From NCBI GenBank assembly GCA_005191425.1, contig SUPR01000051.1, positions 1-24,331 on the forward strand: DNA of 24,331 nucleotides, read 5' to 3'. The stretch is from Candidatus Helarchaeota ASGARD archaeon Hel_GB_B (GTDB lineage: Archaea; Asgardarchaeota; Lokiarchaeia; Helarchaeales; HEL-GB-B). A program made the position numbers and the translations under genes. The notes below the pieces were generated by a model. The model was not told where the DNA came from, searched no databases, and was given only the letters and a program-made list of their open reading frames with translations. Position 1 is the first letter of the stretch; each line of letters starts with the position of its first letter. Below are positions 7,901-14,450 of this stretch, one piece after another.

Positions 7901-8306
7901 AGGGTGCGTTTATTACCAGAAATTACATCATATGGTCGCAGATAAAATTCATGCACGAGCAAGAGGGCCGGTTCAGATCCTTACAAGGCAACCAACTGAA
8001 GGTAGAGCTCGTGAAGGCGGACTTAGATTTGGAGAAATGGAGCGTGATTGTTTAGTTGGGCATGGTGCAGCAATATTACTTAAAGAAAGATTGTTAGATG
8101 AATCTGACAAATCCCAAATTTATGTATGCGAGGGATGTGGCCTCTTAGCAGTATATGACAGGAATAGAGACAAATATTATTGCCCTAAATGTGGTGAAAA
8201 GACTGTAATATCTCAAATTACAATATCCTATGCTTTTAAGTTATTATTGCAAGAATTGATGAGTTTAAATATATTTCCGAAATTAAGATTAACTGAACGA
8301 GCATAA
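4947..8306 (+). CDS. rpoB: DNA-directed RNA polymerase subunit B (Rpo2), single unsplit polypeptide
   Basis: Motifs QHLDSYNRF, GGYFIINGSERV, CPSETPEGPNCGLVKN, GDKFASRHGQKG, NPHAIPSRMTVGQ, YYQKLHHMV, EGGLRFGEMERD and a C-terminal CEGC...CPKC zinc site. The start may be GTG 4941 or ATG 4947. Confidence 0.99.
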   Translation: MIELKSTDFWHLMNAFFEEKGLVRQHLDSYNRFIEETLQEIVDEVGEIDPEIPDFKVKLGRISVSRPTIVEADGSEKSIYPMEARIRNLTYAGSLHLEMTPINIDSQGIEMEGETVQVYIGRMPIMLRSKRCLLDGLSDDELISHGEDPRDSGGYFIINGSERVLVTREDLAPNRIICEVSSRSQTSTHEAKVFSTAQGFRAPVTLERRRDGELRLSFPSVPGKIPLVIVLRALGITKDKDIMEIISDDMNIRQELITSLEKAIPLYVPKDDEATIKNALDYIGKRVAVGQTKEYRERRACQILDKYLLPHIGREEDSRIKKAYYLGQMTQKLLELALKKRMEDDKDHYSNKRLKLAGDLLTSLFRVAFSQLIRDIKYQLDRTSGRGRQMNIRTAVRADLITERLRHALATGNWVGGKTGVSQLLDRTNYISALSHLRRVVSPLSRSQPHFEARDLHPTHWGKICPSETPEGPNCGLVKNLALMSYISVGTNEDIIEKYLIDLGVETIDELKNQGYKKGARVFLNGILIGIHDNPNFLVSQVRQKRRNGELNHEVNIAYYDDTNEIQINCDAGRARRPLIIVEDGKPKLKPIHIEKIMNNEWKWSDLIQNGIIEYLDAEEEENTLISMKLEEITEETTHLEIEPSTILGITAAIIPFPEHNQSPRNTYEAGMAKQALGLYCANYKLRVDTRGHLLHYPQIPMVKTKAMDAIGFDHRPAGQNFIVGVISFQGYNIEDALILNKASIERGLGRSSSFRCYEAEERKYPGGQEDHFETPDRSVRGYRATDKYRHLGEDGIIEPEVEISGGEVIIGRTSPPRFLEEYREFDLPAPTRRETSINMRHGETGIVDKVILTETIDGNKLVKVKVRDLRIPELGDKFASRHGQKGIIGLIVPQEDMPFTEDGVVPDLIMNPHAIPSRMTVGQVIEAIAGKVGALKGEQIDGTAFSEKAESLYKELQKLGFKYNGREVLYNGVSGEKYKADIFIGCVYYQKLHHMVADKIHARARGPVQILTRQPTEGRAREGGLRFGEMERDCLVGHGAAILLKERLLDESDKSQIYVCEGCGLLAVYDRNRDKYYCPKCGEKTVISQITISYAFKLLLQELMSLNIFPKLRLTERA

Positions 8307-8309
8307 ATC

Positions 8310-8323
8310 TTTTATTTTTTTTT
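8310..8323 (+). terminator. Oligo-T tract, candidate intrinsic terminator after rpoB
   Basis: TTTTATTTTTTTTT immediately follows the rpoB stop. T-tracts are common in this AT-rich DNA, so support is weak. Confidence 0.4.
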
Positions 8324-8361
8324 AATACCAATTTTAAACAATTTATTAATCAAAATAATAA

Positions 8362-9357
8362 ATGGTGGATAATCAAGTGTCGAAACAGATTTGGGTAGAA
8401 AAATATAGGCCACGAAAATGATAATAGATAATATTATCATCGTGATCGCTTTCTGAGATAATAAATCAGAATGAAATTGTGGAACGATTAAAGAAATTTG
8501 TTGAAGAAAAATCTATGCCACATTTAATATTCTCAGGCCCACCTGGGACAGGGAAAACTACTGCTGCTCTTGCATTGGCCAGGGATATGCTGGGCACATT
8601 AAATAGGGATGCAATCTTAGAATTAAATGCGTCCGATGATAGAGGAATTAATGTAGTTAGAAATCAAATAAAGAATTTTGCTAATAAAACTGGATTAAGT
8701 AATATTCCCTTCAAGATTATGCTACTAGATGAATCGGATAGTATGACTCGTGAAGCACAAAACGCTATGCGTCGAACTATGGAAAAATATACTAAAAAGT
8801 GCAGGTTTATTTTGATTTGTAATTATTCTTCTCGAATAATTGAACCAATTCAATCACGATGTGCAATTTTCAGGTTTTCACCGTTAAAAGATGAGGATAT
8901 TGAAAACCAATTAAGAATGATTGCAGAAAAAGAAAAATTACAATTATTTGAAGAAGGTCTTGAAGCTATTATATATCTTTCTAAAGGTGATATGCGTCAT
9001 GCTATTAATACTTTGCAAGCAGCATCTTCTATAAACAACGTGATAGACCAAGAAGCTGTATATAAAGTCGCTGGAACTGCCCACCCCGAAAAAATTAGGG
9101 GTATTCTCAAATTAGCACTTAAAGGTAATTATATTGACGCAAGAAAAATGTTGATGGAATTAATTAAAACTTTAGGACTTTCTGGACTAGATATTTTAAA
9201 GCAAATTCACACTGAATTGTTCAATCTTGAAAATTTATCCAATGAAAAAAAGTTATATCTGGCCGAAAAAATCGGTGATATAAATTATAGATTAATTGAA
9301 GGTGGAGATGAAGAGATCCAGCTATCTGCATTATTAGCTTATTTTTCTATGAATTAA
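8362..9357 (+). CDS. rfcS: Replication factor C small subunit, intron-containing: join(8362..8416,8447..9357), predicted 321 aa
   Basis: Walker A GPPGTGKTT, ELNASDDRG, LLDESDSMT, SRC motif (IQSRC) and GDMRHAINTLQ. The N-terminal box WVEKYRP is encoded at 8392-8412, in frame with the 8479..9357 ORF but separated from it by in-frame stops inside a BHB-forming insert. Confidence 0.95.
8417..8446 (+). other. 30-nt bulge-helix-bulge (tRNA-type) intron in rfcS
   Basis: Outer helix AGGC 8407-10 / GCTT 8448-51. Central 4-bp helix CACG 8411-14 / CGTG 8441-44. Bulges AAA 8415-17 and ATC 8445-47 on opposite strands. Inner 9-bp stem ATGATAATA 8418-26 / TATTATCAT 8432-40 with a GATAA loop. Cleavage after the second nucleotide of each bulge gives CGA A|CG CTT = R-T-L. 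Confidence 0.9.
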
Positions 9358-10569: not shown

Positions 10570-11445
10570 TTGAAGACACTATTTGAAAATGAGATAAACA
10601 AATTCACAATTTTTAAGGATGAAACAAAAATTAACTTAGATTATATTCCACCAAAATTATTACATCGTGAAAAAGAGATTTCATATCTCTGGAATCATTT
10701 TAAAATTTTAATATCAAGTCCTAAATTAGCTTCCCCAAGTGTATTAATAACAGGAAAAAATGGTGTGGGGAAAACAGTTTTAGTTAAAACATTCGGAATT
10801 AAAATTGAAAAATTAGCCAAAATATATAATGTTAAATTAAAATTTATTCATATTAATTGTAAAATTGAGGCAAGTGCCTATCAAATAATTTTGAAATTAT
10901 TAGAAAGTATTAATATTTCTATTCCACATCGAGGTTTTAGTTTTTATGAACTGTTTGATCTACTAAAAAATGAGCTTGAAATAAGAGACCAAACTCTTCT
11001 TATTACATTAGATGAGATTGATTCTTTAAAAAGGAAAGATTATAAATTATTATATTCTCTATTGAAGTTTAACGAAAATAAAATCAATTCAAAACATTTA
11101 ATATCAATTATCGCTATATCAAATGATTTAAAATTCATTAACAATATTGACGGCGATATAAAAGGCATTTTTCTAACTCATAATATTAAAATTAAGCCAT
11201 TCTCTCAAAAAGAATTATTTGATATATTGAAAGATCGTGTTAATGAAGCATTTTTTATTGGTTCAGTTCCTGATCAAATTATTAAAAAAATTTCCGAATG
11301 GTGCGCCCCTAAAAATGATATTAAAATAGCTCTAAATATACTTAAAACAGTCGGAAAAATTGCAGAACAATCAAATTCATTTAATATCAATTCTAATTTT
11401 CTAAATAAGGCATTTCAAAATTTCGAGAAAATATGTGTTTATTAA
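10570..11445 (+). CDS. cdc6: Cdc6/Orc1-family AAA+ protein lacking the C-terminal winged-helix domain
   Basis: IFKDETKINLDYIPPKLLHREKEI N-terminus, Walker A GKNGVGKT, FIHINC and Walker B LDEID. The protein is only 291 aa and ends shortly after the sensor-2 helix. Confidence 0.85.
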   Translation: MKTLFENEINKFTIFKDETKINLDYIPPKLLHREKEISYLWNHFKILISSPKLASPSVLITGKNGVGKTVLVKTFGIKIEKLAKIYNVKLKFIHINCKIEASAYQIILKLLESINISIPHRGFSFYELFDLLKNELEIRDQTLLITLDEIDSLKRKDYKLLYSLLKFNENKINSKHLISIIAISNDLKFINNIDGDIKGIFLTHNIKIKPFSQKELFDILKDRVNEAFFIGSVPDQIIKKISEWCAPKNDIKIALNILKTVGKIAEQSNSFNINSNFLNKAFQNFEKICVY

Positions 11446-11971: not shown

Positions 11972-12943
11972 ATGGACGAAATTTTACGTGAAATAAAGAC
12001 GGGTCTAGACAGAATAAAATCAATAACTGGAGTAGAAAATGTTGTTCTTACTCAGAGAGATGGTCAACCTATAGAATCATCAGGTGTATGGTTATCAAAA
12101 AACGAAATTTTCGGAGTTTGCTCAATTGTAAGCGCAGTTTTCAATGTTGCGGAGCAGATTCATTCAAATAATTTAAATTATTTATTAATCGATGGCGAAC
12201 GAGCAAAAATATTAATTGCACCTATAAATACATGGCGTTATGACAAAAATAAGGCAAATTTTAATGGTAATTTTAAATCTGAATACTTTTTAACAATTAC
12301 AGCCAGACTTAAAGTGAATTTAGGGGCAATAATGATATCTATGAAAGATACCTTACTGTCCATGGCTAGAATAATTTATGATTCAGGAAAAGAATTTAAG
12401 CCACCATTAAGAGCATATGACGAAGATGAACTTAAACGCATTTTAACAAGTTTTAATGTTAAAGAAGATGAAATAACAAATACTAAAATCGAATCGAATA
12501 ATATTCAAATAGATGAAAAATTATCAAATAAAATCAGAGATTGTATCTTTGATTTCTCAAAAAACGTCCCAGGTGTTAAATTAGCTAGCATTGCAATAAA
12601 TGGAGGATACCCCTTATTAAATGTAACACTAGATTCAAACAACCTCCAAGGTGAAGGTGCGTTAAGCTATTCATTATATGATACAAGTAAAAGAATTATT
12701 AATACTCTTAAAAAGACTCCCATTAATAACGTTTTATGTGAATGTACTAATTATTCCCATTTTATTTATGGAATTCAAAATGGGATTTTCAGCACTTTTA
12801 TTTCAAATGGTCAAAAAAGACTTGGACTTTTAAGATTATTAATACCTCAATACGTAAACTGGCTGTCTGAATATATGAACGAAGCTACAAAATTGGAAAC
12901 GCCTGTGCTCGAAATTAAAAATATTTTTGATGAACTTATATAA
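11972..12943 (+). CDS. Tandem roadblock/LAMTOR (MglB-like) domain protein
   Basis: Two roadblock-like units: LDRIKSITGVENVVLTQRDGQPI...SAVFNVAEQI...YLLIDGERAKILIAPI and FSKNVPGVKLASIAINGGYPL...SLYDTSKRII...VLCEC...HFIYGI...LGLLRL. Confidence 0.75.
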   Translation: MDEILREIKTGLDRIKSITGVENVVLTQRDGQPIESSGVWLSKNEIFGVCSIVSAVFNVAEQIHSNNLNYLLIDGERAKILIAPINTWRYDKNKANFNGNFKSEYFLTITARLKVNLGAIMISMKDTLLSMARIIYDSGKEFKPPLRAYDEDELKRILTSFNVKEDEITNTKIESNNIQIDEKLSNKIRDCIFDFSKNVPGVKLASIAINGGYPLLNVTLDSNNLQGEGALSYSLYDTSKRIINTLKKTPINNVLCECTNYSHFIYGIQNGIFSTFISNGQKRLGLLRLLIPQYVNWLSEYMNEATKLETPVLEIKNIFDELI

Positions 12944-12956
12944 ATAAAATTGAGAT

Positions 12957-13871
12957 GTGTTCAATTTGGAGTCAAGTTATTCTTTAAAAGATTTAATAAA
13001 TTTGCTGAATAAAGAAAATTTTTCTAAAATGCTAAGGGCATTATTAAATAGGATCCCAATATTTGTAATAGGAAATGAGTCAATTCAAATAGATAGAATT
13101 GTTAATAGCATTATAAAGTTAGTCCCTCATAGGCATGAAATGGTGTATTGGAATGATTTTATTGAAAATGATGAGGCACATCGATTATTTTCAGAAGAAG
13201 ATGCTGATTATAATGTAAGAAGATTGGTTATTTCTTCACTAACTAATGCTACTCCACATGCTCTTAGAAAAATCAAATCTTTTAAAGGATGGGTACTTGG
13301 TTATCTCGCAAAGAATAAGAGTTTTAATGAAATATTGAATGAATTAAAATTAATGTTGGAACAATCCATATTTTTATTGATCTATAAAAATGGTATAGAA
13401 TTAATAACTCATGGTTTTGAATGGAATGGGCTTAATTTAAATTTTGAGAAAAATATTATTCAAAAATCTATCATAGAAACAGAGGTCGCATTAGAAAAAA
13501 TGAACCGTGTTTTAAGAAAAAAAGTAAAATCAAAAAAAGTACCATCTACACAAATGCTCAATGCTATTCTAAATTTTGATTCTGAAGAAGCCAAAATAAG
13601 ACAAAATATATACAATCAAAAAATAGAAGAATTCGTTCAGGCAAGCCTTAGGGCGCTTGCAATTTTGACACGTATCGAACTTCTTCAAGAATTGGGTTTT
13701 AATATTCAAATCTCAGAAAAAACACTTTTTAAAACGATTGATTATTATGAAGTTGACCATAAAAGATTAATTGACTTTTTAAAATTCGAATATGGTATTG
13801 ATTTTTCAAAATGTATTGGGACTGGAATGAAGATCGCTATTGGTGATGTTATCGAATCTAAATGGGGTTAA
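12957..13871 (+). CDS. Hypothetical protein, possibly DENN-core-like
   Basis: A 304-aa ORF closely spaced between the roadblock and GTPase genes (13 and 15 nt gaps). The N-terminal LRALLNRIPIFVIG...IDRIVNSIIKLVPHRHEMVY loosely recalls the cDENN core pattern. The fold is a guess; the gene itself is well supported. Confidence 0.7.
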   Translation: MFNLESSYSLKDLINLLNKENFSKMLRALLNRIPIFVIGNESIQIDRIVNSIIKLVPHRHEMVYWNDFIENDEAHRLFSEEDADYNVRRLVISSLTNATPHALRKIKSFKGWVLGYLAKNKSFNEILNELKLMLEQSIFLLIYKNGIELITHGFEWNGLNLNFEKNIIQKSIIETEVALEKMNRVLRKKVKSKKVPSTQMLNAILNFDSEEAKIRQNIYNQKIEEFVQASLRALAILTRIELLQELGFNIQISEKTLFKTIDYYEVDHKRLIDFLKFEYGIDFSKCIGTGMKIAIGDVIESKWG

Positions 13872-13886
13872 GGAGTTGAGATTTAA

Positions 13887-14450
13887 ATGATAGTTGATTA
13901 TGGAAAACACTTATTGATGTTTAAAATTGTTTGGTGGGGTCCAGCAATGTCTGGAAAGTCCACTTCTGTTAGATATTTGTTCGAAAAATATAATAAACTA
14001 GAAAATTTAAAATCTATTGAAACTGGAGCTGGAAGGACTTTATTTTTTGATTATGGTGATTTAACTTTCATTAAAGGTAATTGGAATATAAAAATTAATA
14101 TATGGACATGTACAGGTCAGAACTTTTACGCAGAAACAAGACCTACAGTATTAAATGGAGCTGATGGACTAATTTTTATTGCTGATGCACAGCGAAATTT
14201 ATTGAATGATAATATTGAAAGCTGGAATGAATTAAAAAACCTATTAGGAAACAAAATAACTGAAATCCCAATTATATTTTGCTTAAATAAAGTAGATTTA
14301 AACGGTAATAACAAATTACTGACTATTTCTGAACTAAAACAGCACTTTAAATTAAACAAAAATGCAATAATTTTTGAAACTGTCGCAATTAATGGAAGAA
14401 ATGTATTTGAATCTTTTGTTAGCTTGTTAAACAAAATCCAAAGAGGTTAA
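13887..14450 (+). CDS. MglA-like small GTPase
   Basis: KIVWWGPAMSGKST (G1), GRTLFFDY (MglA RTLFFDF signature), WTCTGQNFY (MglA-type TxxGQ G3), GADGLIFIADAQ, NKVD (G4) and ETVAING (G5). AGGAG lies upstream. Confidence 0.88.
   Translation: MIVDYGKHLLMFKIVWWGPAMSGKSTSVRYLFEKYNKLENLKSIETGAGRTLFFDYGDLTFIKGNWNIKINIWTCTGQNFYAETRPTVLNGADGLIFIADAQRNLLNDNIESWNELKNLLGNKITEIPIIFCLNKVDLNGNNKLLTISELKQHFKLNKNAIIFETVAINGRNVFESFVSLLNKIQRG

Follow-up and report, generated by a model that had tools for sequence, protein, structure and literature searches.

A predicted bulge-helix-bulge intron interrupts the gene for the RFC small subunit in a Helarchaeales-like Asgard archaeon

The window considered in the current analysis is a stretch of 24,331 nucleotides (nt) from Candidatus Helarchaeota archaeon Hel_GB_B (assembly GCA_005191425.1, contig SUPR01000051.1, positions 1 to 24,331, forward strand). 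The element under study is an insert of 30 nt near the start of rfcS, the gene for the main small subunit of the clamp loader RFC, referred to as rfcS1 where it has to be told apart from its paralog rfcS2. The gene is flanked by rpoB on one side and an AIR-synthase-like gene on the other. Its reading frame opens at ATG 8362 with MVDNQVSKQIWVEKYRPRK, is broken by in-frame TGA TAA TAG at 8419-8427 and by a later TGA, and resumes in the same frame after the insert as LSEIINQNEIVERLKKF, with a stop at 9355-9357. [quoted passage not shown]

Excision of 8417-8446 eliminates the four in-frame stops and leaves a frame of 966 nt encoding 321 amino acids (aa) and a stop. The spliced junction, obtained in silico, reads …AGG CCA CGA A/CG CTT TCT GAG…, that is KYRPR-T-LSEIINQ, the slash marking the joint. 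The corresponding RNA junction is predicted as ...CCACGAA/CGCUU..., with …AUAGGCCACGAA joined to CGCUUUCUGAG…, and the predicted peptide across it, …YRPRTLSEIINQ…, contains Arg18-Thr19-Leu20. The removal proposed in the initial annotation, with its ACG junction codon, its RFC consensus and its 321-residue product, is thus reproduced in silico. Exon 2 matches the AAA, RFC lid and Rep_fac_C families of Pfam and shares 50-61% identity with the full-length small subunits of RFC from many archaea. The only other RFC-like genes of the genome are a paralog of 35% identity and a large subunit, both on contig C107. A second, intact copy of rfcS1, a possibility raised in the initial annotation, was not found in this 93.7%-complete genome. 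The codons CGA and ACG at the junction, earlier pointed out as unusual, are minor ones genome-wide, with 13.8% of the Arg codons and 7.5% of the Thr codons respectively.

The public gene calls for rfcS begin past the insert and give products of 292, 299 and 300 aa, so that the annotated proteins are without the N-terminal RFC box. An ATA codon at 8458 seems to be the start of the 299-aa call, and GTG 8479 that of the 292-aa call. At NCBI, relatives are given as 299-300 aa.

The minimum-free-energy and centroid structures of 8400-8458 place a strict hBHBh' motif at 8407-8451, with the helices, bulges, stem and loop that had been described before (Table 1). The two bulges of 3 nt lie on opposite strands, each 3' of its own strand of a 4-bp central helix. 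The fold energy is -13.5 kcal/mol (z = -2.8), equalled by one of 200 shuffled sequences, and the motif also forms within a context of 176 nt. The folding program pairs A8415 rather than A8418 with U8440, because the run of A at 8415-8418 permits an extension of the central helix by one pair, and the computed inner stem has 8-9 bp. The frame is restored only in the canonical register, with a central helix of 4 bp and the bulge at 8415-8417. The archaeal splicing endonuclease EndA cuts the BHB motif after the second base of each bulge.

Table 1. Parts of the interrupted rfcS gene and of its predicted bulge-helix-bulge motif (positions in the window)
Feature	Positions	Strand	Remarks
rfcS exon 1	8362..8416	+	18 codons (MVDNQVSKQIWVEKYRPR) and the first base of the junction codon
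Predicted 30-nt BHB intron	8417..8446	+	From the third base of the 5' bulge to the second base of the 3' bulge; tandem TGA TAA TAG and another in-frame TGA
rfcS exon 2	8447..9357	+	Final two bases of junction codon ACG (Thr), then 302 codons and a stop; Pfam matches; dN/dS 0.05-0.14
Outer (exon-exon) helix, 5' strand AGGC	8407..8410	+	Partner 8448-8451; 80% of cells paired, five lineages
Central 4-bp helix, 5' strand CACG	8411..8414	+	Exonic, codons CCA CGA; partner 8441-8444; invariant, 100% paired in five lineages
5' bulge AAA	8415..8417	+	Predicted cut 8416/8417; invariant in the five-lineage alignment
Intron hairpin	8418..8440	+	9-bp stem 8418-8426 / 8432-8440, 5-nt loop 8427-8431; 100% paired in five lineages
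Central helix, 3' strand CGUG	8441..8444	+	Intronic; from fold and five-lineage alignment
3' bulge AUC (AAC in three lineages)	8445..8447	+	Predicted cut 8446/8447
Outer helix, 3' strand GCUU	8448..8451	+	From fold and five-lineage alignment

The genome (3.54 Mb, both strands, 7.1 million positions) has been scanned for BHB motifs with 110 intron lengths (11-120 nt), with the threshold set at an outer helix of at least 4 bp, an inner stem of at least 8 bp, a loop of up to 8 nt and at least 3 G-C pairs in the central helix. Four motifs with the geometry of the rfcS motif passed it, against one with the mirror geometry. One of these four coincides exactly with the rfcS interruption, in the register by which the RFC consensus is recovered, and chance occurrence of the motif at this site is excluded. 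No Rfam match was found in the window; a short-word BLAST search of the whole genome gave no other copies of the motif or the intron and only AT-rich chance matches. There is no sign in these comparisons of a mobile element or a tRNA intron as the source of the putative rfcS intron. A group I or group II intron, whose ribozyme core would take up hundreds of nt, and an intein, which would be an in-frame protein-splicing domain, were also considered and are excluded by the size of 29-30 nt, by the in-frame stops and by the lack of an Rfam match in the window.

The insert is present in independently obtained DNA. Four public DNA runs from different studies (hydrothermal vent, marine sediment) supplied contigs that were compared over 8150-8750; two of these contigs span the whole region, a third covers the whole insert without a difference and the fourth ends inside it at 8437. 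None has an indel or a joint at the insert, which is identical in four further assemblies of the same species. The possibility that the 30 nt are an assembly artefact, raised with the initial proposal, is ruled out by these independently assembled contigs.

The 5' ends of rfcS in related genomes, whose comparison had been suggested along with the intron, have been compared in an alignment of five lineages (A2) comprising this genome, a genome of the same genus (G001) and three lineages obtained by protein search and contig look-ups; scans of genome and metagenome contigs yielded only one extra copy of the G001 species. The five lineages are deeply diverged (77-83% aa identity) and all are interrupted at the same site. 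The inserts are 30, 29, 30, 30 and 29 nt long, so that two of them shift the frame, and canonical cuts lead to a common junction that reads KYR[P/T]R-T-LS[E/Q]IINQ in silico in all five. The insert of G001 is one of the 29-nt variants, and its exon 1 and exon 2 are therefore in different frames. In the protein search the annotation of every relative at 78-83% identity gives a truncated protein (280-288 aa), and that of relatives at or below 61% a full-length one. One relative of 299 aa (P0058) was considered as a further truncated gene and rejected, its sequence simply bordering a run of N.

The pairing of the motif is maintained in this alignment, where 95.3% of the pair cells hold standard pairs, against 26-58% in controls with slid partners. 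All five sequences keep the central and inner helices paired throughout, and two pairs of the inner stem show compensatory changes, AU/UA/GU at alignment columns 26-36 and UA/AU/CG at columns 28-34. The covariation score is 0.165, compared to a mean of 0.043 for shuffled alignments, and was reached by two of the 500 shuffles of the five sequences.

The conservation of the insert stands out against the neutral sites of the same gene. Among the intron columns 21 of 30 are invariant, compared to one of the 61 four-fold degenerate sites of exon 2. Between the lineages exon 2 shows synonymous differences (pS) of 0.57-0.85, with low ratios of non-synonymous to synonymous change (dN/dS, Table 1); synonymous sites are saturated, and all five are old lineages. 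None of the three four-fold sites that fall within the exonic portion of the motif (CCA, CGA, ACG) varies, though CGA and ACG are minor codons. By our own count, the chance that four invariant sites of 64 would include all three motif sites, if placed at random, is about 1 in 10,000. The lower stem of the intron, AUGAUA…UAUCAU (within alignment columns 19-48), is likewise invariant in lineages whose four-fold sites are randomised, a conservation that exceeds the need for pairing.

Of the differences between exon 1 of this genome and that of G001, over 12 alignable codons, six are synonymous and one is conservative. This excess of synonymous change shows exon 1 to be translated in its own frame, and a translated exon 1 must be joined to exon 2 to make sense. 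All the rfcS1 loci inspected outside the clade (four other genomes of the order, several of the class, Methanomethylicota, Bathyarchaeota and Ignisphaera) have EKYRPR[TSIV]L without interruption. The simplest history, and a probable one, is that the ancestor of a Helarchaeales-like Asgard clade acquired the intron a single time.

The genome also encodes the proteins expected to process such a motif, among them the EndA and RtcB that the initial annotation had asked for. It has two genes of the EndA family, in the regions C36:44408-44659 and C98:28593-28853, as well as RtcB and archease, which are about 1.7 kb apart. For the first EndA the closest proteins are catalytic alpha subunits from the heterotetrameric enzymes of Aeropyrum, Sulfolobus and Pyrobaculum, with that of A. 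pernix the most similar. It aligns without gaps through the crenarchaeal-specific loop, carries Lys where the A. pernix enzyme has K44 and R46, and retains the catalytic Tyr, His and Lys. The loop and its lysine are known to give EndA a broad substrate specificity (PMC3241643). The second EndA is a divergent paralog, consistent with a structural beta subunit; an (alpha-beta)2 type of EndA with the loop has been assigned to Asgard archaea (PMC5829648).

The host is an Asgard archaeon, as had been thought probable. A eukaryote-type actin (446 bits) is encoded in the genome, and the members of the clade are named Candidatus Helarchaeota, Lokiarchaeota or Promethearchaeota archaeon at NCBI; RpoB, looked up in an atlas of protein features, contributed no useful taxonomy. 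Positions 11972-14450 of the window encode in a row a Roadblock/LC7-domain protein, a protein of 304 aa and a Ras/Arf-like small GTPase, a typical eukaryote-like cluster of Asgard archaea. The assignment is based on the actin, the Roadblock and small-GTPase genes and the NCBI names, which support a Helarchaeales-like lineage from hydrothermal sediment.

With a probability of about 0.88, we consider 8417-8446 to be a genuine archaeal BHB intron in the main RFC small-subunit gene, which EndA would cut at 8416/8417 and 8446/8447 and RtcB would ligate. In the proposed mechanism the pre-mRNA would fold so that exonic AGGC CACG pairs with intronic CGUG and exonic GCUU, leaving two 3-nt bulges that are 4 bp apart. 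An (alpha-beta)2 EndA would then cut after the second base of each bulge, and RtcB, aided by archease, would join the exons and create the Thr codon A/CG. The 321-aa clamp-loader subunit would be encoded only by the spliced mRNA, whereas the unspliced mRNA would stop after 19 codons. On this evidence, tRNA-splicing enzymes almost certainly need to cut the rfcS mRNA and rejoin it before the protein is made. The earlier suggestion that splicing of the EndA/RtcB type is needed to express the clamp loader is borne out in each of its sequence-level predictions.

Several points weigh against this conclusion. We infer cleavage and ligation in vivo from sequence, none of the sequencing runs listed for this stretch being recorded as RNA, and only two covarying pairs have been obtained from the five sequences. 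Two of the five lineages have a weak outer helix, a relaxed form of the motif, and would for that reason need an enzyme that accepts relaxed motifs. An uninterrupted copy of rfcS could also lie in the missing part of the 93.7%-complete genome.

Three other explanations have been weighed against a spliced intron. A truncated gene or decaying pseudogene, in which the insert is a disruptive hairpin, exon 1 is untranslated and the protein is made from a downstream start, would suit the gene callers and NCBI, whose products all begin after the insert, and in-frame GTG and ATA codons are indeed present downstream. These downstream starts disagree among the annotations, however, and the retention of the WVEKYRPR motif in exon 1 of all five lineages, with mostly synonymous changes, is unexpected of an untranslated region. 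The insert is, moreover, far more conserved than the four-fold sites, and the geometry of the motif restores the exact consensus in the 29-nt and the 30-nt variants alike, all of which makes truncation very improbable. Still less credible is translational bypassing or recoding, in which the ribosome would hop over or read through the 29-30 nt without cleavage of the RNA, as in gene 60 of phage T4. The stop codon soon after the last codon of exon 1 and the stable hairpin that follows bear a superficial likeness to a bypass signal, but readthrough is ruled out by the four in-frame stops, and no matching take-off and landing codons (CGA or AAA before the gap; GAU or AUC before CGCUU) would give RPR-T-LSE. 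The features that are conserved, namely two 3-nt bulges and a 4-bp helix, are those of an EndA substrate and not of a bypass signal, and the inserts in other genes of the genome, described below, differ from this one and have only the BHB geometry in common.

EndA might also cut the motif mainly as a regulatory or decay site, controlling the level of the rfcS mRNA or releasing an RNA with a role of its own, with ligation being partial or conditional. The invariance of the AUGAUA…UAUCAU stem above the need for pairing would fit such a role, as would the occurrence of introns of this kind in both RFC small-subunit paralogs and in dnaG. The AU-rich stems, however, have few alternative sequences, and the coding conservation of exon 1 together with the exact junction implies a need for the ligated product. 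A mainly regulatory site is on these grounds unlikely, though somewhat less so than truncation, and an intron that is removed and whose exons are joined is preferred.

The rfcS1 intron does not appear to be isolated, as at least three other genes of the genome (rfcS2, an acyl-CoA dehydrogenase and dnaG) seem to carry similar introns. The gene rfcS2, the second RFC small-subunit paralog, is interrupted within Walker A by a predicted BHB intron of 27 nt (contig C107, 48342-48368, minus strand), the removal of which restores GPPGIGKTS. Inserts at the same site are found in genomes G001, G004 (where it shifts the frame) and G006, and none in G005. The rfcS2 intron appears from this distribution to be older and more widespread than that of rfcS1.

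The acyl-CoA dehydrogenase (ACAD) gene has a frame-shifting BHB intron of 31 nt (contig C38, 4933-4963, minus strand) just before the catalytic YEG motif, and splicing in silico restores …RDAKMAEIYEGTSEIQR / …RDAKMAEIYEGTSEIQRMVIAR. In dnaG the frame is interrupted by about 37 nt that separate DGIVE from PDVVGA and form a hairpin flanked by helices (contig C29 on the minus strand, around positions 779-834 of the plus strand). Without these 37 nt it reads DGIVERPDVVGA, and dnaG apparently contains a similar intron whose removal would restore the conserved motif. The homolog of cbf5 is uninterrupted in this genome, with a frame of 333 codons.

A genome-wide census of BHB motifs, keeping those removals that fuse open frames, was swamped by fusions of adjacent genes (for example, 31160 with the true geometry and 31210 with the mirror geometry). 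As the two geometries are equally frequent, the number of mRNA introns is not obtainable from it; the restoration of a motif set apart only rfcS1, rfcS2 and ACAD. ARAGORN identified only 6 tRNAs in this genome of 3.5 Mb and 93.7% completeness, which is consistent with a genome rich in tRNA introns, where most tRNA genes are hidden by multiple or non-canonical introns. The sole usable case, a tRNA-Met with an intron of 21 nt, fits the BHB geometry except for a single C·A mismatch, which lies in the central helix.

Another gene of the window, at 10570-11445, encodes an Orc1/Cdc6 of only 291 aa with AAA+ and lid domains, followed after 22 nt by a separate open reading frame of 99 aa with a winged helix, extending to 11767. 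The latter matches the ArsR-type HTH_5 family and not Cdc6_C. The Orc1/Cdc6 gene may be split or truncated. No convincing BHB motif bridging it and the next frame was found, the sole candidate being weak, with an outer helix of 2 bp and a central helix made up of A-U pairs only.

The best known introns of this kind occur in Crenarchaeota, where a BHB intron in cbf5 of Aeropyrum and Sulfolobus is said to have been described by Watanabe in 2002 and Yoshinari in 2006. The rfcS intron appears to be real and would belong by its motif to the cbf5-type class, with a different host gene. The cbf5 intron (Yokobori 2009, PMC2738675) is likewise a short, BHB-bounded intron that interrupts a protein-coding gene, in hosts with a heteromeric (alpha-beta)2 EndA and the crenarchaeal-specific loop; it is also patchy among relatives, implying gain or loss, and has confused gene prediction. 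The two systems differ in that the gene is here rfcS of an Asgard (Helarchaeales-like) lineage, with the intron 18 codons from the start, and that several genes per genome are affected instead of one. The splicing of cbf5 has been shown by experiment, while that of rfcS is predicted from sequence. The only archaeal pre-mRNA whose splicing has experimental confirmation is that of crenarchaeal cbf5, other genes being merely predicted (PMC2738675). The initial annotation had known BHB introns in mRNAs mainly from crenarchaeal cbf5; this stands for the confirmed cases of the literature, and the rfcS case is not unique in view of the similar introns in rfcS2, ACAD and dnaG. A literature search found no publication on BHB introns in protein-coding genes of Asgard archaea.

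The intron in Walker A of rfcS2 resembles that of rfcS1 in genome, gene family and motif, and differs from it in site and sequence as well as in its apparently greater age and spread. A more distant parallel is the splicing of HAC1/XBP1 mRNA by IRE1 and RtcB in eukaryotes, which is also an excision of a short mRNA intron at stem-loops, catalysed by proteins independently of the spliceosome, that alters translation. In metazoa the ligation is carried out by RtcB. The endonuclease IRE1 and its recognition motif are, however, unrelated to those considered here, and the IRE1 system is regulated by stress. The tRNA introns of Asgard archaea share with the rfcS intron the geometry of the motif, the size of the hairpin (29-30 nt) and presumably the enzymes. 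They differ in that the rfcS substrate is an mRNA, in which the exonic strands of the motif are also constrained by their codons. A 2026 preprint on Asgard tRNA introns treats tRNA genes only and not mRNAs.

The intron core is conserved in sequence well beyond the need for pairing, and for this reason a regulated splicing, or a function of the excised and possibly circular 30-nt RNA, is suggested as a speculation. The mRNAs of rfcS1, rfcS2 and dnaG would all need EndA and RtcB. In this Asgard clade the tRNA-splicing machinery might act as a gate for making the clamp loader and perhaps further replication proteins, a prokaryotic analogue of the control of XBP1/HAC1 by IRE1 and RtcB. We consider such a control unlikely.

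The comparative signal at this locus is unusually clean: the variants include frame-shifting and in-frame ones, there is covariation, and the conservation is extreme while neutral sites are saturated. Such introns are hidden by annotation as truncated or frameshifted genes, which affects gene catalogues and metabolic reconstructions. For recombinant EndA and RtcB of Asgard archaea the rfcS motif offers a concrete, testable substrate. The genes rfcS1, rfcS2, ACAD and dnaG point, taken together, to mini-introns as a class in the mRNAs of Asgard archaea, which has a bearing on the debate on the origin of interrupted genes before the spliceosome. An essential replication gene of an Asgard archaeon, a member of the group closest to eukaryotes, would apparently be expressible only after splicing of the tRNA type.
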